From contig JBAQUX010000025.1 of the NCBI GenBank assembly GCA_049297775.1, positions 122,835-186,834 of the forward strand: DNA of 64,000 bases, in the 5' to 3' direction. Every line of letters begins with the position of its first letter. The stretch's first letter is position 1. The DNA comes from Minisyncoccia bacterium. GTDB lineage: Bacteria; Patescibacteriota; Minisyncoccia; Phycocordibacterales; UBA2100. A program made the translations under genes and the position numbers. The notes under the pieces are model-generated. The model did not search any database and was not told where the DNA came from. It was given only the letters and a program-made list of their open reading frames with translations. Positions 4,368-63,586 of this stretch are shown in pieces.

Positions 4368-5489
4368 TTACATCCCTGGAGGTGGTAATACCAAACCTTC
4401 GGGCTCGAAATGCACCTCACGCGCACCATTTTCAACAACACCAATATCAACCAAATCATACCCTGCACTCTTACCTATCTCTAATGTGCGCGCTACTTCA
4501 TGTGCAGGAATAAAGAGGTAGTACCCAATTCCCCAGTTAAATGTTTTTACACAATCAAGTAAAGACACCCCGCATCGCTCTTTCACAAACGTAAAGAGTG
4601 GCGGCACCGGCACCCATGAGTGGACGCGGTAGGTATATGGCCTATCATCAAATGCGAGCTTTGCGATACCACTTCCCGTGCCAGGAAGTAACGCAGCAAT
4701 CTCAACATCAGCCTTAAGTAAATTTTCTATGAGAGCCACATATGAGCGTGTAGGTATCAGCACTTCTGCACCAAGAGTATTTCCGTTTTCTAGCTTTGTT
4801 AAAAATTGCTCTGGGAGCTCAAGTGCCTTTTTTATTACGAGCGAAATACCATTTGCGTGAATTCCGGATGACGGTACGCCAATGATGTGACATCCTGCGG
4901 AGAGCTTTTCTCCGGTAATAATTTTTTCTTTTGGTGCAATAATTCCCGTAACACAGCCCGAGAGAGATGGCGCACTTTTTACTGGGGGTTCTGCCTTAAT
5001 GAGATACTTGAGTGCTGGTGACTCGCCCGCTGGTAATGCCATGCCCACCTCTTTACAGACAGAAACAAAACCGCGAGCCAAATCTTGCGCGCGCCGTTCA
5101 TCGGCAAACCATTCACTGTCTCCTGCCGCTACTTCATCGGTATACACCACAGGCATGGCGCCTTGCGCAATAACATCATTCACCGCCATTAACGCCGTAT
5201 CTATTGCCATAGCATCATAATATGTTGGCCCTTCAGGATTACGCGCATACATCCATTCTGCTATCCAGTTCTTATTCCCAAGACCTTCTTGAGTATTACA
5301 CCAGCGATGTGATTGCGTCCCTCTATATTCATAGACACCTCCATGTGAGTGCAGGACGCTTTTGTCGATATATACATCTCGAGCATTAGGAAAATTAAGT
5401 GTTTGTTTTCCTGCAGCAATCATCGCATGCTTGAATGGTTCAAGCTTTGTATAGTCTACTCCTGCTTTTGCGTATTCAGATTGAGCCAT
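4368..5489 (-). CDS. purM: AIR-synthase-related protein, probably phosphoribosylformylglycinamidine cyclo-ligase (divergent PurM)
   Basis: N-terminal YAKAGVDY, a PurM/HypE/ThiL-type fold, 373 aa, and its position inside a pur gene cluster. Confidence 0.6.
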   Translation of the reverse strand: MAQSEYAKAGVDYTKLEPFKHAMIAAGKQTLNFPNARDVYIDKSVLHSHGGVYEYRGTQSHRWCNTQEGLGNKNWIAEWMYARNPEGPTYYDAMAIDTALMAVNDVIAQGAMPVVYTDEVAAGDSEWFADERRAQDLARGFVSVCKEVGMALPAGESPALKYLIKAEPPVKSAPSLSGCVTGIIAPKEKIITGEKLSAGCHIIGVPSSGIHANGISLVIKKALELPEQFLTKLENGNTLGAEVLIPTRSYVALIENLLKADVEIAALLPGTGSGIAKLAFDDRPYTYRVHSWVPVPPLFTFVKERCGVSLLDCVKTFNWGIGYYLFIPAHEVARTLEIGKSAGYDLVDIGVVENGAREVHFEPEGLVLPPPGM

Positions 5490-57404: not shown

Positions 57405-57836
57405 CTACTGCTCGTACAATACAAAATGAGGAATCCTGTCGAGACCAATGTAGTTGAACATCTTGTAATTTGCACGACGCGCTGTAGGCGGTAGCTGGCG
57501 CATCTTGAGATGCCGTTTAGGAATAAATGGATAAAAATGAATTACCTGTCGTTCCTTCCCTTTTTCTTTCCAGGTAAAGTTGGCGATAAGTGCGGGGGTC
57601 ATGTACCCGGATTTCAAAACCTTTTCCATAATATCCCACCCAGCCCCGAAGATGACTGGCGTGGGCTTCTTGTTATTCGTCTTTACCTGCGCACGGAACG
57701 AACACCCGACGCACTGCACATCGTAGAGAGGGTAGTTCTTGGGGAGTCGCATAAGTCTCTTCCCACAGTTCGGACACGGCACGAGCGCAACTACCTGATC
57801 TTCACCTTTGTCGCCAGCATCTTGGTTTTTAGACAT
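57405..57836 (-). CDS. Zinc-ribbon protein with a possible PD-(D/E)xK-like nuclease core
   Basis: CPNCGKRL...CVGC four-Cys ribbon; an E...D...QVK spacing resembles a nuclease core. The assignment is speculative. Confidence 0.4.
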   Translation of the reverse strand: MSKNQDAGDKGEDQVVALVPCPNCGKRLMRLPKNYPLYDVQCVGCSFRAQVKTNNKKPTPVIFGAGWDIMEKVLKSGYMTPALIANFTWKEKGKERQVIHFYPFIPKRHLKMRQLPPTARRANYKMFNYIGLDRIPHFVLYEQ

Positions 57837-58277: not shown

Positions 58278-58454
58278 TTATAATCTACCGCACACTTAAA
58301 AAGACCCCATGGGTCCTTTTTAAGTTATGTTTATGTTTGCGTAATGTAGACATTGCTTGTATTGGGGTGCTCACTTGATACAATATTTAATATGAGCACA
58401 ACAGATTCAGAAATAGCACTTAATAATATTATTAAAAATTTTTCAGGTAATGGT

Positions 58455-59270
58455 ATGAATTCATTTAAAAAAATAATCCTTCTCGCCATTGCAGGCATAG
58501 TACTCTTTAACACATTTGGCATTATCCAAGCTGGCGATAGAGGCGTGAAGACACGTCTCGGAAAAATAGTTGGGATAGTTCAGCCAGGACCGTATTTTAA
58601 AATCCCTGTGCTCGAATCCATTTCAACAATGGACGTTCGTACGCGCACCATCAACTACGATAGAAATGGTAATGAAGGCGACGCAGCAGACACATCACAA
58701 ATTTTTGGCGCATCTAAAGACCTCCAAGATGTGAAGATAGGGGTTGTGGTTAACTATCACACAGACCCAGACAAAGTTACGGATATTTTTGCTCAGTACA
58801 GTTCTGTACAAAACTACGAAACAAATGTGCTCGAATCGATCGTCAGGAAGACAGTGAAATCTCTTTCCGCTTCCTACACAGCTGAAGAACTTGTAACAAA
58901 ACGAGCAGAGTTTAACGATAAGGTAACTGAAGACCTTACAGCTCAATTTTCTGAAAAATGGGCAATACTCGAAGCTGCCAACATAACCAATTTTGAATTT
59001 TCTGCAGATTTTACAAAAGCTATTGAAGCAAAAGTTACTGCGACACAAAACGCAGAAGCTGCACGAAATAAGCTCGAACAAGTAAAATTTGAAGCGCAAC
59101 AACAAATTGAAAGCGCAAAAGCCCAAGCCGAAGCGATACGTATACAAGCACAGGCTATTAATAGCCAAGGTGGTGCAGACTACGTAAACCTAAAAGCTGT
59201 AGAAAAGTGGGACGGTAAGTTACCAACTCAAATGATACCAGGATCTACTGTGCCGTTCTTACAACTATAA
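58455..59270 (+). CDS. SPFH/band-7 (prohibitin/HflC-like) membrane protein
   Basis: N-terminal TM, then the VQPGPYFKIPVLESISTMDVRTRTI SPFH core, then an Ala/Gln-rich coiled-coil tail. Start taken at MNSFKK. Confidence 0.8.
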   Translation: MNSFKKIILLAIAGIVLFNTFGIIQAGDRGVKTRLGKIVGIVQPGPYFKIPVLESISTMDVRTRTINYDRNGNEGDAADTSQIFGASKDLQDVKIGVVVNYHTDPDKVTDIFAQYSSVQNYETNVLESIVRKTVKSLSASYTAEELVTKRAEFNDKVTEDLTAQFSEKWAILEAANITNFEFSADFTKAIEAKVTATQNAEAARNKLEQVKFEAQQQIESAKAQAEAIRIQAQAINSQGGADYVNLKAVEKWDGKLPTQMIPGSTVPFLQL

Positions 59271-59401
59271 TTTCTAACTGAAATTTCTTAAAGAGACCCG
59301 TCCGGGTCTTTTTAAGTTAATAATATAATGCTAGATATTATGTAAAAGCAATACGCACCTTTAGCATGCGACAGCTTAGCTTCGACAGATGTCATTCTAT
59401 T

Positions 59402-59653
59402 TTATTCTCGATGCGGACAACCTGGCCAGCAACACGGACGGCGCTTACCTTGCGTTATTTCAGCATGAAGTCGTGTAATGTGCTCTTTTCTCGTCTCTGG
59501 TTTTTTAAACGAGATTACCCAGCATATCCACTCGTTGCGACCAAGCGGTGTGAGACTATTCCATGCATTTGCTACCTTTTCAGAAGATACGAGAACTTTT
59601 CGCAGGTCGGCAGGTACGCGGTGCACAACACCAGAAGATAGTGTTTTTGTCAT
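59402..59653 (-). CDS. YdeI/OmpD-associated family protein
   Basis: ...EWICWVISFKKPETRKEHITRL...CWPGCPHRE matches the family core. Confidence 0.65.
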   Translation of the reverse strand: MTKTLSSGVVHRVPADLRKVLVSSEKVANAWNSLTPLGRNEWICWVISFKKPETRKEHITRLHAEITQGKRRPCCWPGCPHRE

Positions 59654-59675: not shown

Positions 59676-59795
59676 GAATGAGTTCACGGCTTTGATTACA
59701 ACGCGCAACGTGCCTATGCACGTTACTTCGGGCGCAAAAAATGCTCCGCTTTTTTTGCTGACTGACTCAGTCTGGAACCTCACACCTTGAGACCT
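59676..59795. repeat. Direct repeat copy 1: ~58-nt hairpin-containing element plus ~35 nt resembling a degenerate tRNA-Gln 3' half
   Basis: 59703-59760 gcgcaacgtgcctatgcacgttacttcgggcgcaaaaaatgctccgctttttttgctg is near-identical to 63461-63516. The following cagtctggaacctcacaccttgagac parallels the tRNA sequence cagacttggaatcgaaccaagattgagag. Confidence 0.7.
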
Positions 59796-59933
59796 TGTAA
59801 GGGTTCTTCGGGTACTTTTAGTGTAGCAAATTGAGACGTCTCAGTCTGGTCTCAATAGACACGATAGACACTATAAAAAGAGCTTAGGGAGTGTCTTGTG
59901 AGACCGTTTAAGGGTATTTACAGCTTTGACAAC

Positions 59934-60464
59934 CTAGCCGTAATAAATGCACAAACTGCTCAAAATCGGGAACATTACTTGGTACAACTGCCAGAGGAAG
60001 ATCCCCACAAAGAGCGCAAATGGTACAAGAAAAAACCATGGGTTCTTCCCCTTGTTTACCTCCTTCATCCTCTTAGTTTGACTAGTCACTTCCTTATACA
60101 AAGATTTAAAGAAATCAAAACCTAGGTAAATGATACTGAACGTCAAAAGCGTCTTAAGAGCATCGTTACCAGATTGCGTGAGATTCGATGCGTCACAATA
60201 TGACTGTGCAAGAAAGATAATAAACGATAGACTAGCACCTACCAAGAAAAGGGACTTCATGACCGCATGTCCAGCAAAAGCCCAAGCAACCATAGCAAGG
60301 ACTACGAGTTCAATTAGAAGTATCGTCCATCCTATTGTTTGGAATGTATCTTTAAAAAAAGTCATTCCTACAAACACAAGTGCAGACAACACCAAAAAGA
60401 TACTAAACTGAATTAGCTTTTCTTTGCTGCTTGCAAGTTCTCTAATCATTTCTTTTATTTTCAT
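59934..60464 (-). CDS. Hypothetical membrane protein (4 TM), co-directional with and 20 nt downstream of the KAP NTPase gene
   Basis: 176-aa ORF with four hydrophobic helices. Confidence 0.55.
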   Translation of the reverse strand: MKIKEMIRELASSKEKLIQFSIFLVLSALVFVGMTFFKDTFQTIGWTILLIELVVLAMVAWAFAGHAVMKSLFLVGASLSFIIFLAQSYCDASNLTQSGNDALKTLLTFSIIYLGFDFFKSLYKEVTSQTKRMKEVNKGKNPWFFLVPFALFVGIFLWQLYQVMFPILSSLCIYYG

Positions 60465-60484
60465 AGACTAATACTATCGGGGAT

Positions 60485-63295
60485 TTACTCGTTGAATTCT
60501 TTAACTACGAGATCACCGAAATCTTTTGAGTTTTTAGAGACAAAGCTGGCTATCGCCTGCTTGTGTGGTTCAGACAAAGTTCTTACTTGTCTCAGTTTTT
60601 GTACAAACGCATCTACTTGGTCTGGCTGAACACCCAACCTAGAAATTGCGTCGATCCATTTAGTGAGCAAGTCTGTGTCGGAAAAAGCGCCAGCATTAAT
60701 CATTCTCAATACAATGTTCTTTAAGAAGTTTGGATCTCCCGAACGTTCAGCTGGAACACTGTACCCAACGTACTCTAAGAATGCGAGAGCTTCATTCTCA
60801 TTTACAACTAGGTTAGCAAAAATATCAGCCTTCTCCTCATCTGAAAGTTTTCGCTTTAGAGGTAACTTACTTAATAGATCGAGCGTTACTCTGCTTCTAA
60901 ACATTAAACCCGTTCGAGCATTCTCATCATTAGTAAGAAAATCCTTGCCCAGTGTCTGCAAAATAGTATCAGCAGTATTGGCATTTTCAATAATATAGCG
61001 ACGAATCCATGAGGCGGGCTCTTTGTTAATAGTCAAATTAACTTTTTGGAAAATCTTTACGCATAGAGCTTTTTCCTCAGCAGACTTATTAGCAGAGTAC
61101 CAAAAAGATATTGTTGAAGTGAATGCGTTTAGGATCGTTCCCACTCCGCCGTCACCGGAGGTTGGCGGACCTGATTTCTCAAGAAATTCTAAGCTTTGCT
61201 TTAAGACCTCAAGCCGAACATTGTCGACTTCGACAATGGGTTGCCACCGAAGTAAATAATCGAACAAGGTTAGGCCCACTGAATAGTACTCGCTCGTTGT
61301 TGGGCCAAGTGTAGTCAGTATCGATAAAATATCATCTAGGATATCCTTGCGGAATTTATCTGACTTCTCTGCATCAGGAAAAAGCTCATCCAGCCTGAGA
61401 TGTCTAATGAAATTCTTTTTTGCCTCGATTATTTCAATTCTTTTGTTCTTAAAATTATCCTTATTCTCGTCATCATGGACAATCTCAAAAAGTTTTCTGA
61501 CATTCTTTATCATATTTCTTTCAACAAGGGTATCTACTGCAATATTGCTTAGTATTACAACGAGATTTTGACTAAAATTCTTCTTATTAGCAGGTGACAC
61601 ACCGTCAAGACCTTTACTAAACATTTTCGATAGATCTATCCTATCGATTGCCGATTTGAATTTACCGCTTCCAGCATTTTTAAACGTGAGATGCACGACT
61701 TCTTGAAAATGTTTTAAATCTTCAGGTGTAATTATTTTATGGACTGTAATAAATATATTGAACAGTAAATTTTCATTCCGCATGTGTCGTCTACAGTAAT
61801 CAGCCATAAGTTGTCCAAGATTCGACAGCTTGTCAGCTGATTTAACAGTGTTATATATTTTTTCAGCATCCTGTTTTCGCCCCTCGATTAGAGAGAGCAC
61901 GAAGCTATTCCATTCTGGGACAGTCTTTTGTGCGTCACTTTGTCGTAATGAGAAATATATATCCTGAGCCTCGTCGTCATCAATATGTGAAGTGACTCGT
62001 AAAAATTCTTCTATTTTCTTTTTTTCTTCCTGTTCATCATCATGTAACTTCGAGACAATCTCACTAAGCTTGTCGCCAGTCCTTAGCACCCTATCCTCAA
62101 TTTTGCTATAAGATTTTGGCCATTTAACGCGTAGGACGAGTACCTTCGCAAGAAAGGCAACGTGTTCCTTTTTGATAATTTGCTCAATACCCCTTTCTTT
62201 TGCAAGTAGATACAAAGAAATAAGCGAATTAATGAACTGGATGATTTCTCGTGGATTGTTTCTAAACGCATAACTTAGAATGAACACCAGATCATAGTTA
62301 TCCTTAAATTCTGGAATTTGCGTCGTATTGAGTTTACGAACTATGAAATCATCGAGCTCTATGTTAAGAAATTTAGGGATCTGAATGGAGTGATTAAAAA
62401 ACTTCCTTAAATATTCCTCAGTATCAAAATTATCACCGTACTCCTTAAGGAGTTGGTCGTTGATTGCTTTGTTATCACAAGGGATTACAAAGACCGTTCT
62501 ATTATTCACATTTTTCCCATCAAGAGAGTAATCCTCGTCAGAAAGGAAAGTCTTGATATCACTCAAGAGATTTACTGCTTTTTCACTCGAAAGTCGATCA
62601 AGGTTGTCAATTATCACTAATAAATCGTTATTTTTTATTTCTGCAAGTGCTTTTACAAAGTGCTCCTCGAAACCCTCAGCTGAATCTGTTTTATCTATTA
62701 CTTTCTCTCCATTAACTTGTTTTATCGTATCCGAGATAAAAGTTAGGAGTATTCCAATTACTCCTAAGTCAATAACTCTCTTTGCAATGCCTATGTAATC
62801 CTCTGAAAGCAATAAGGGTAGGATGCTTTGTCTAAAAATTATAATAACTACTAGGGCAACAATGATTAAGAACACACTCCTAAACAGAAGGCTCCCAAAC
62901 GAAGCCTTTAGACTATCGAACCAGCTTAGATTAAAAGGAACCGATAATGATTGGTTAAGGGTTTCCTTATAGTTCAGTCCTAGATTTAGTTTCTGGTCGA
63001 GACTTATAAGAAATTGTCTACGGAATGAATCTCTTTCGTACTTCCAGGTATCAAAATATAGAACCTCGTATTTTTTCTCATTATTTAACCCATCTTCAAT
63101 AAGTTTACAAATCGTACTTTTACCCACTCCCCACTGACCATATATTCCAATATTAAATGGGCGCGGAGCTTTTCTTATTATTTCTATAACACTATTCGCT
63201 ATTTCTCCATGCCCAAAAATATCACTCTCTCCACTTTCGAGAGGTTTGTCTTCGAGAACTGTAAAATCTTGTTTGTGTGATTCTTTTTCTTCCAT
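60485..63295 (-). CDS. KAP-family P-loop NTPase (937-964 aa) with two TM helices inserted in the NTPase domain
   Basis: FNIGIYGQWGVGKSTICKLIE Walker A, YFDTWKYERD, an intra-domain hydrophobic pair (FRSVFLIIVALVVIIIF / VIGILLTFISD), then Walker B LLVIIDNLDR. Start taken at MEEKESHK; the longer track ORF to 63379 would translate through a tRNA-derived fragment. Confidence 0.8.
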   Translation of the reverse strand: MEEKESHKQDFTVLEDKPLESGESDIFGHGEIANSVIEIIRKAPRPFNIGIYGQWGVGKSTICKLIEDGLNNEKKYEVLYFDTWKYERDSFRRQFLISLDQKLNLGLNYKETLNQSLSVPFNLSWFDSLKASFGSLLFRSVFLIIVALVVIIIFRQSILPLLLSEDYIGIAKRVIDLGVIGILLTFISDTIKQVNGEKVIDKTDSAEGFEEHFVKALAEIKNNDLLVIIDNLDRLSSEKAVNLLSDIKTFLSDEDYSLDGKNVNNRTVFVIPCDNKAINDQLLKEYGDNFDTEEYLRKFFNHSIQIPKFLNIELDDFIVRKLNTTQIPEFKDNYDLVFILSYAFRNNPREIIQFINSLISLYLLAKERGIEQIIKKEHVAFLAKVLVLRVKWPKSYSKIEDRVLRTGDKLSEIVSKLHDDEQEEKKKIEEFLRVTSHIDDDEAQDIYFSLRQSDAQKTVPEWNSFVLSLIEGRKQDAEKIYNTVKSADKLSNLGQLMADYCRRHMRNENLLFNIFITVHKIITPEDLKHFQEVVHLTFKNAGSGKFKSAIDRIDLSKMFSKGLDGVSPANKKNFSQNLVVILSNIAVDTLVERNMIKNVRKLFEIVHDDENKDNFKNKRIEIIEAKKNFIRHLRLDELFPDAEKSDKFRKDILDDILSILTTLGPTTSEYYSVGLTLFDYLLRWQPIVEVDNVRLEVLKQSLEFLEKSGPPTSGDGGVGTILNAFTSTISFWYSANKSAEEKALCVKIFQKVNLTINKEPASWIRRYIIENANTADTILQTLGKDFLTNDENARTGLMFRSRVTLDLLSKLPLKRKLSDEEKADIFANLVVNENEALAFLEYVGYSVPAERSGDPNFLKNIVLRMINAGAFSDTDLLTKWIDAISRLGVQPDQVDAFVQKLRQVRTLSEPHKQAIASFVSKNSKDFGDLVVKEFNE

Positions 63296-63337
63296 AAATT
63301 TATACAGGCAAATACTCACGTATCTTAGCATATGGTG

Positions 63338-63358
63338 GCTGCCAGACTTGGAATCTTT
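63338..63358 (-). repeat. Exact 18-nt copy of the tRNA-Gln 3' end (gattccaagtctggcagc on the minus strand)
   Basis: Identical to the T-loop/acceptor 3' strand of the tRNA at 63516-63586; lies just upstream of the KAP NTPase gene. Confidence 0.7.
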
Positions 63359-63391
63359 TTGGTAAAAGTGTTGACTCACTTTTCCAAAAAC

Positions 63392-63442: not shown

Positions 63443-63516
63443 CGGTCTTCGATTCACAAGGCGTAACGTGCCTATGCACGTTACTTCCGGCGCGAAAAAT
63501 GCTCCGCTTTTTTTGC
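63443..63516. repeat. Direct repeat copy 2, immediately 3' of tRNA-Gln
   Basis: See copy 1; carries the same aacgtgc-ctat-gcacgtt hairpin. Confidence 0.7.
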
Positions 63517-63586
63517 TGCCAGACTTGGAATCGAACCAAGATTGAGAGCTTCAAAGGCTCCTGTCCTACCTTTAGACGATCTGGCA
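63516..63586 (-). tRNA. tRNA-Gln (anticodon UUG), CCA not encoded
   Basis: Minus-strand fold done by hand: acceptor TGCCAGA/TCTGGCA (U1-A72 as in bacterial tRNA-Gln), D-stem GTCT/GGAC, anticodon stem GGAGC/GCTCT with loop CTTTGAA (anticodon TTG), T-stem CTTGG/CCAAG with loop TTCGATT, discriminator G. Confidence 0.8.

Follow-up and report, generated by a model that had tools for sequence, protein, structure and literature searches.

Predicted KAP-family NTPase and small membrane protein, candidate independent defence-island genes, on an islet at a tRNA-Gln gene in a Minisyncoccia bacterium

Single-gene KAP NTPases whose C-terminal regions are of unknown function protect Enterococcus from phages, as shown in PLoS Biol in 2026 for EF_KAP and three metagenomic KAPs; protection depends on Walker B as well as on the C-terminal region, and the mode of action of EF_KAP is not abortive infection (PMC13552941). 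Two other NTPases that work at the membrane are PifA, which acts there without transmembrane (TM) helices, and Tmn, which senses a phage protein and collapses the cytoplasm (PMC13001434). Here we describe a KAP-family gene that lies, together with a small membrane gene, on an islet of ~3.7 kb at a tRNA-Gln in a metagenome-assembled genome (MAG) of a Minisyncoccia bacterium (Patescibacteria). The islet is part of a stretch of 64,000 nucleotides (contig JBAQUX010000025.1, positions 122,835 to 186,834), which we refer to as the window and whose numbering we use below wherever no other locus is named. Patescibacteria are ultra-small, mostly uncultured episymbionts whose immunity is poorly known, and the KAP gene would extend to them a class of antiphage proteins that was validated only in 2026.

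Our favoured explanation, to which we assign a probability of about 0.55, is that the islet carries two separate defence-island genes: a self-contained KAP NTPase, and a small membrane protein that is not specific to KAP. The starting points for this reading are the observed architecture of the proteins, the genomic contexts of their relatives, the repeats around the islet and its base composition. It departs from a first-pass annotation of the locus, which had put the two genes forward as a candidate two-gene defence or abortive-infection module, as yet uncharacterised, and which had correctly placed a co-oriented membrane gene immediately downstream of the KAP gene, across a gap of 20 nt. 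The two genes are as follows.

60485..63295, minus strand: KAP-family P-loop NTPase, 936 aa (Pfam PF07693)
59934..60464, minus strand: multi-pass membrane protein, 176 aa, an open reading frame (ORF) that starts 20 nt after the KAP stop

The hallmark of the KAP family, reportedly set out by Aravind et al. in 2004, is that TM helices interrupt the NTPase domain between the Walker A and B motifs. The longer of the two proteins has every part of the architecture that had first been read in it. The Pfam hidden Markov model (HMM) KAP_NTPase matches from profile position 3 to 291 of 293 (E=2.3e-29; 103 bits, cut-off 20), a Walker A motif (GxxGxGKS/T) and a Walker B motif (hhhhDxxDR) enclose a pair of inserted helices, and a helical C-terminal region follows.

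63113..63139, minus strand: Walker A, GQWGVGKST, aa 53-61, read directly
62726..62914, minus strand: membrane hairpin within the P-loop domain, two hydrophobic helices, aa 128-190, from a Kyte-Doolittle scan
62594..62623, minus strand: Walker B, LLVIIDNLDR, aa 225-234, read directly
60488..61948, minus strand: C-terminal all-alpha solenoid, aa ~450-936, from the secondary structure of an AlphaFold2 (AF2) model

An alignment of 39 homologues revealed that the residues G, W, G, G and K of Walker A are invariant, as are D230, N231, D233 and R234 of Walker B; the sequence YFDTWKYE, typical of KAP, lies at aa 80-87. Few columns are invariant beyond aa 465, and the C-terminal part is poorly conserved. 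The earlier size of 937-964 aa stands at its upper end for the longest ORF (60485..63379, 964 aa from the first GTG; the NCBI annotation has 948 aa), and its lower end needs correction by one residue. Because the homologues, which are 932-941 aa long, align from the ATG at 63295 with an invariant M1, the protein is most likely 936 aa in length.

The AF2 model of the KAP protein (mean predicted local distance difference test score, pLDDT, of 83) consists of an ORC/Cdc6-like P-loop core, the hairpin (helices 125-162 and 168-192, low pLDDT) and then an uninterrupted alpha-solenoid from about aa 450. Foldseek comparisons of the model with the PDB gave weak matches (best E=4e-4), which were to Cdc6/Orc1, HslU and RdrA for the N-terminal part and to HEAT/ARM-type proteins (karyopherins, condensin subunits) and DSR2 for the C-terminal part. 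No enzymatic fold was found in the C-terminal part by this comparison, and a PDB sequence search with the KAP protein returned no relative. The solenoid is the likely sensor or scaffold. The window KAP represents a version of the class that has a large alpha-solenoid C-terminal part and no enzymatic fold. Among those of the 120 listed homologues that come with a source name, most are from Patescibacteria, and IMG/VR viral contigs contain no relative.

By analogy, the window KAP is a candidate new member, borne by the candidate phyla radiation (CPR), of the already known KAP antiphage class, so that for this gene the label of an uncharacterised protein is out of date. In common with the EF_KAP-type proteins it has a KAP domain with membrane helices, a long C-terminal region without a known domain, and a mobile or defence context. 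The C-terminal region of the window KAP is an alpha-solenoid of ~490 aa, whereas that of EF_KAP spans 322 aa of unknown fold. [quoted passage not shown] The window KAP comes from a Patescibacterium, and no small serine recombinase is adjacent in the window.

Several other systems resemble the window KAP over part of its length. The PADLOC candidate PDC-S20, a single KAP-like gene, is represented by the HMM PDLC04959, whose positions 18-395 (of 464) align with aa 52-463 in the 964-aa numbering (E=2e-21); the PDC-S20 models are ~450 aa long and stand for a computational candidate only, whereas the window KAP has an extra C-terminal domain of ~490 aa. QatA is also a KAP-type ATPase, and its PADLOC and NCBIfam models match short stretches of the N-terminal P-loop region of the window KAP. 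We rejected identity with QatA, since NF041923 scored 111 bits against a cut-off of 600. Among the neighbours annotated with Pfam, which are OmdA, SPFH and DpnI-like genes, there was no QatB, QatC (QueC-like) or QatD (TatD). PifA, which the F plasmid uses to exclude T7, is a KAP-family NTPase that acts at the membrane and causes abortive infection; the PADLOC model for it (720 positions) matches only aa 43-131, the Walker A region, and identity with PifA was likewise rejected. Tmn, like the window KAP, is a P-loop NTPase encoded by a single gene with two TM helices inserted in the NTPase domain, but it belongs to a different NTPase family and has no accessory domains, unlike the window KAP with its large solenoid. 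Membership of the YobI/Tmn family was rejected, as Pfam gave only KAP_NTPase, AAA_22 and NPHP3_N at E<=0.01, and so was membership of the STAND (NACHT/NB-ARC) class, for which the only match was NPHP3_N with 16.9 bits, below its cut-off of 24.8.

These likenesses supply the frame for a putative mechanism, in which a solenoid sensor, an NTPase switch and a membrane effect are drawn by analogy from EF_KAP, PifA and Tmn; it is sensing and the membrane effect that we infer here. The fast-evolving C-terminal alpha-solenoid would recognise a phage component, and recognition would switch the NTPase, for which both Walker motifs would be needed. Anchored by the hairpin within its P-loop domain, the NTPase would sit at the inner face of the membrane, and a nucleotide-driven change, probably with oligomerisation, would then act at the membrane to stop infection. 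The small protein would most likely act on its own at the membrane, either in exclusion or defence or in a function of the islet backbone.

If the two genes formed an obligate system, in which KAP detects infection and the small protein, gated or activated by it, disrupts the membrane as an abortive-infection effector, relatives of the one should be accompanied by relatives of the other. The arrangement in the window (20-nt gap, same strand) is in keeping with such a system, as is a KAP C-terminus that forms a solenoid without an enzymatic effector. To compare neighbourhoods from the KAP side, we surveyed nine loci of the clade, including the window, with KAP identities of 44-100%. The small membrane gene is downstream of KAP in three of the nine: the window, L070 (56%) and the P0059 locus (62%), where a 176-aa gene 3 nt downstream was judged by size and position only. 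In L070 (4816-9314), tRNA-Gln is followed by an S24/LexA-like peptidase gene, the KAP gene and the membrane-protein homologue, an order that matches that of the window; the genome is distantly related, and its tRNA-Gln is 78% identical to the window's. The membrane protein of L070 has 40% identity to the window's over 113 aa (E=2e-23), and its start overlaps the KAP stop. The pair therefore recurs in L070, where it again lies downstream of tRNA-Gln, and it probably recurs in the P0059 locus. Against an obligate system, the small gene is absent in the other six loci, after KAP homologues of 82, 70, 69, 68, 51 and 44% identity, among them the closest. A 209-aa gene that follows the 68% homologue was considered as a diverged copy of the membrane gene and rejected for want of any similarity.

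We also compared neighbourhoods from the side of the small protein, in 68 loci from GTDB species genomes and Joint Genome Institute (JGI) metagenomes. None of the 68 contains a relative of the window KAP (tblastn, E<=1e-3; a positive control was run). The 58 upstream neighbours fall into 38 unrelated clusters and the 64 downstream neighbours into 52, so that synteny exists on neither side of the membrane gene, and a conserved gene neighbourhood across homologues, on which the first-pass annotation had staked its module, largely fails to appear. Of the upstream genes, 45 of 58 are co-oriented with the membrane gene, and 40 of these 45 lie within 50 nt of it or overlap it; the named defence partners are always within 0-20 nt. 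The direct upstream partners, a number of which are self-sufficient genes or operons, include the following.

Type I restriction-modification (R-M) protein HsdR: L002 and L007, and L059 by blastp clustering
HsdR with YgjP: L003
1000-aa protein with a Dsr1-like C-terminal region: L001
Shedu SduA: L011 and L079-81
Gabija GajB (E=1e-228): L027 and L032
CBASS cyclase (CD-NTase): L019
2-TM protein that itself follows a CBASS cyclase: L077
785-aa AAA_13 ATPase: L078 and L085
1368-aa NACHT-like ATPase: L042
Distant KAP: L012

Downstream neighbours include SNase, AAA_15/AAA_21, OLD-TOPRIM, PD-(D/E)XK, reverse transcriptase and DUF4238. The closest relatives of the window's small protein follow AAA_13 (89% identity), CBASS (87%), and Shedu and AAA_13 (84%); the next follow Dsr1-like and Shedu partners (79-80%) and the distant KAP (74%). 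Because the closest relatives thus follow partners from outside the KAP clade, adjacency of KAP and the small gene is recurrent and not specific. Taken together with the absence of the small gene from six of the nine KAP-clade loci and with published KAP defences that act as single genes (PMC13552941), these contexts make the obligate two-gene system quite unlikely.

An alternative that the list of partners brings to mind is that the small protein is a shared accessory: it would boost, or act as a generic membrane effector for, whichever defence system lies upstream. It directly follows at least eight kinds of defence gene, often with overlapping junctions or junctions of 1-5 nt that suggest co-translation, and a precedent for such cooperation is the recorded synergy of Tmn with ATP-sensitive systems, reported for Gabija, Septu and PrrC (PMC13001434). 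However, no signalling output is common to the partners: R-M, Shedu and Gabija act as nucleases, and the CBASS operons are complete, with effectors of their own. Indeed, the L019 operon already encodes a patatin fragment with the motif DGGxWANNP and the L077 operon a 2-TM protein; we accordingly rejected a role for the small protein as the CBASS effector, and since these operons have effectors of their own, the small gene is an extra in both. Moreover, about one fifth of the upstream neighbours are on the other strand (a Glu/Gln-tRNA synthetase gene is an example), and the small protein has no homology to known effector TM domains. We regard the shared accessory as an unlikely role. Autonomous action at the membrane, or a role in the islet backbone, is the function that we favour for the small protein over that of a KAP-specific effector.

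Defence and mobile-element genes also surround the KAP clade. Contexts in its loci include type ISP R-M with HicA, DpnII R-M, a large serine recombinase with SNase, and convergent terminase genes, and one further locus has methyltransferase (MTase), ResIII/TnsA, DUF4238 and AbiEii genes; the KAP-clade loci are defence or mobile-element regions. The defence association that had been proposed for the locus extends to both genes, the loci of each including R-M and other defence genes. These contexts bear on a reading in which neither gene serves in defence: KAP would be an NTPase for signalling or scaffolding at the membrane, the small protein an ordinary envelope protein, and the region that holds both a variable one. 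Eukaryotic KAP NTPases are signalling scaffolds, which fits that reading, and the KAP clade is known from sequence alone. Yet both families lie consistently among defence and mobile-element genes, in dozens of independent contigs, and bacterial KAP proteins are experimentally antiphage (PMC13552941), so that we consider this reading very improbable.

In two loci of the clade, L069 (4263-5675) and L082 (5916-7292), the 70% and 82% KAP homologues lie a few genes from convergent genes for a terminase large subunit, from GIY-YIG genes and from N6/N4 methyltransferases. These neighbours suggest that the two KAPs are carried on prophage-like elements of Patescibacteria, yet IMG/VR has no copy.

The small protein is the more novel part of the pair, as its family is unannotated and trails unrelated defence systems. 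A Kyte-Doolittle scan gave four strong hydrophobic segments, which agrees with the earlier description of a 4-TM protein, and also a weaker fifth helix (aa 101-121) that the description lacks. The segments at aa 1-19 and 122-142 are rich in K/R, and neither the loop at aa 89-100 nor the C-terminal tail contains either residue; by hydropathy and the positive-inside rule, the protein is probably 5-TM with an N-in/C-out topology. In the family alignment the motif AQSYC is conserved and two cysteines are invariant, C90 (in AQSYC) and C172, both of which this topology would place on the outer face.

Searches with the small protein returned no match in Pfam, PADLOC, NCBIfam or PHROGs, and a family assignment at E<=1 over 18 members in the same four databases was rejected, as the matches were scattered and inconsistent. 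Its AF2 model (pLDDT 75) is all helical and matches no fold in the PDB (best Foldseek E=0.59; nothing below E=0.2 in a PDB profile search). Like the S_4TM/SLATT effectors of CBASS it is a small multi-pass membrane protein encoded in defence operons, and yet Pfam, PADLOC, NCBIfam, PHROGs and the PDB gave no HMM or fold similarity to S_4TM, SLATT, holins or Sie-type proteins. An exhaustive profile search of 1.84 billion representatives yielded 181 clusters (50% identity), nearly all of 165-195 aa and two with N-terminal extensions. The named sources are almost all Patescibacteria, and IMG/VR viral contigs contain no relative. One 5.6-kb contig with HsdR, YgjP and the membrane gene (L003, CAYGIU010000054.1) belongs to a MAG labelled Gammaproteobacteria; because all other named sources are Patescibacteria, the label is probably a binning error. 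Separately, some longer ORFs (L023, 6798-8525; L026, 6744-8495; P0181, 575 aa; P0225, 430 aa) end in the membrane-protein domain; these may be fusions with, or read-through of, an upstream gene, and their N-terminal parts of ~400 aa have no match in Pfam, PADLOC or PHROGs.

The window islet and its edges bear on what the small gene does there. Its features, other than the two genes, are these.

63515..63586, minus strand: tRNA-Gln, anticodon UUG (ARAGORN; Rfam tRNA, 60.7 bits), the upstream-side integration landmark of the islet
63456..63514, minus strand: ~59 nt after the tRNA, copy 1 of a direct repeat (repeat search), with the palindrome GTAACGTGC-ATAG-GCACGTTAC inside
59698..59756, minus strand: copy 2 of the ~59-nt tRNA-downstream block (repeat search), the far boundary of the islet
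63338..63355, minus strand: exact 18-nt copy of the tRNA-Gln 3' end (repeat search, 100% identity), a remnant resembling an attachment (att) site, just upstream of the KAP promoter region
63301..63322, minus strand: 20-22-nt block 5 nt upstream of the KAP ATG, identical to the HsdR 3' end in L077 (blastn, 20/20, and alignment)
59757..59933, minus strand: non-coding 3' arm of 177 nt that travels with the membrane gene (nucleotide comparison)
59757-59832, minus strand: decayed tRNA-like segment of ~76 nt at the sharp arm end, also in L077 (7634-7710), L085 (~4625-4703) and L001 (9487-9563)
59851-59880: 30-nt arm motif, unique in the window

A horizontally acquired islet at a tRNA had already been proposed here, and its edges and composition bear this out. 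The repeat copy at 63456..63514 is 93.7% identical to 59698-59760 over 63 nt, and a longer repeat of 82 nt (87% identity; repeat search) pairs 59698-59779 with 63456-63537, that is, with the tRNA 3' end and ~59 nt downstream. The guanine-plus-cytosine (GC) content of the islet is 37.8%, against 44.1% +/- 1.0 (minimum 41.9%) in segments of equal size elsewhere. Direct repeats of a tRNA 3' end that flank DNA of foreign composition are what defines a tRNA-integrated island, and both are present. No integrase or recombinase was found in the islet; between the repeats there are only two ORFs with homologues, neither of them a recombinase. The repeats, the low GC content and the absence of a recombinase together indicate a small, foreign, integrase-less islet.

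The membrane gene and the arm are kept together at 94.5% nucleotide identity in L077, 80% in L085 and, in part, 73% in L001. In all four loci the similarity of the arm stops at the same base, after ...GTCAGTCAGCA, beyond which each locus differs; in the window, it is the second copy of the tRNA-downstream block that follows. The tRNA-like segment at this end has a D-loop-like CTAAAAGTA, an anticodon-loop-like CTTACAA (which would read UAC) and GGTTC. A decayed tRNA, an att site and a small RNA are all conceivable identities for it. Searches for known RNAs in the arm gave nothing in Rfam at E<=1 and no tRNA or tmRNA with ARAGORN, and its candidacy as an RNA gene was dropped, as RNAalifold on four sequences (-11.4 kcal/mol, 2 compensatory pairs) gave too little for such a claim.

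Two further matches connect the window with other loci. The 30-nt arm motif CTCTTTTTATAGTGTCTATCGTGTCTATTG recurs with 100% identity 39 nt after the KAP stop in L083 (7410-7439) and L084 (6001-6026), whose KAP homologue (69% identity) is without the membrane gene. This match hints at secondary loss of the small gene there, a point in favour of the obligate two-gene system considered above. A lone IMG/VR match to a 19-nt arm motif, which falls within the coding sequence of a His-rich stretch in a T4-like contig, was dismissed as chance. The block at 63301-63322 has its counterpart at 5138-5159 of L077, in the last codons (REYLPV*) of the HsdR gene upstream of the CBASS cyclase, and may mark a cassette junction or be a remnant. 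A decayed HsdR gene upstream of KAP was rejected, since the match is confined to the last 6 codons and the stop (20-22 nt) and the window has no other. Together, the shared arm end, the motif in L083/L084 and the identity with the HsdR end in L077 suggest, across four to six loci, a family of islets that keep their junctions and exchange their cargo; the small gene and the arm would form the fixed end of such islets.

These observations raise the possibility that the small protein is a backbone gene of tRNA-targeting mobile islets, with a part in maintenance, entry exclusion or transfer, and that defence genes including KAP are swappable cargo whose adjacency to it is structural. In line with this, the membrane gene and its ~180-nt arm are kept (94%, 80% and 73%) with a common sharp end in four loci that differ in cargo, the window islet is marked by flanking repeats and a GC dip, and neither flank is syntenic across the family. 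Weighing on the other side are the lack of an integrase or other mobility gene in the window islet, distant loci that have further co-oriented downstream genes and no detectable arm, and the lack of any copy in IMG/VR viral contigs; a backbone role also overlaps the favoured explanation instead of excluding it. As a complete account of the pair we find it somewhat unlikely. A stricter version, that the small gene is a syntenic core gene flanking a hotspot, was rejected, as both flanks vary and L001-L010 contain no tRNA. A further-reaching possibility, which we hold to be less likely than not, is that the small protein defines a new family and, with the ~180-nt tRNA-like arm, makes up the unchanging end of small mobile defence islets, whose cargo (KAP, CBASS, type I R-M, Shedu, Gabija, AAA_13 or Dsr1-like) is swapped. 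The protein could then be an autonomous exclusion or defence factor at the membrane, and its gene could serve as bait in the search for unknown immune systems of the CPR. Like the small serine recombinase used as bait, the small gene is constant beside variable defence cargo, but it has no enzymatic or recombinase function.

If these patterns hold in a full census, the small gene and its arm would provide a genomic marker for defence islands and for new defence genes in the candidate phyla radiation, and the islet a tractable example of how integrase-less islets shuffle immune cargo beside tRNA genes. With the small gene as bait, several large upstream partners without annotation come into view. 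Large unannotated proteins are encoded directly upstream of it in L035 (1683-5147), L030 (2-2143), L018 (2-1654) and L009 (5774-8004); these proteins (1154, 713 and 550 aa, and 381 plus 362 aa) have no match in Pfam or PADLOC and are candidate unknown defence genes of Patescibacteria.

Several considerations weigh against the separate-genes reading, in which KAP is self-contained and the small protein is not specific to it. Because the KAP protein has no recognisable effector domain, there is room for a partner; and because the pair is found more than once (KAP identities of 100%, 56% and probably 62%; twice at tRNA-Gln), there may be some functional coupling of KAP and the small protein. The topology of the small protein draws on hydropathy and charge, and the roles of the KAP clade and of the small protein are proposed from sequences and models. 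The surveyed loci are mostly short metagenomic contigs, annotated protein by protein for the neighbours in ~25 loci and in aggregate for the remainder, and the defence enrichment was judged against a baseline from general knowledge.

The surroundings of the islet in the window include other genes. A 143-aa ORF at 57405-57836 (minus strand), ~2 kb from the islet, matches the DpnI/Dam-replacing family (Pfam E=1e-11, profile positions 24-152 of 183) and the PADLOC model of a type II methyl-directed restriction endonuclease (positions 28-151 of 256), and thus appears to encode a short or truncated methyl-dependent restriction enzyme. Between this ORF and the islet, an SPFH/Band7 gene (58353-59270) is bracketed by two similar terminator-like hairpin palindromes (AAAAAGACCCnnnGGGTCTTTTT) at 58294-58327 and 59287-59319, and an OmdA/YdeI-like gene (59402-59653) lies between the SPFH/Band7 gene and the islet.

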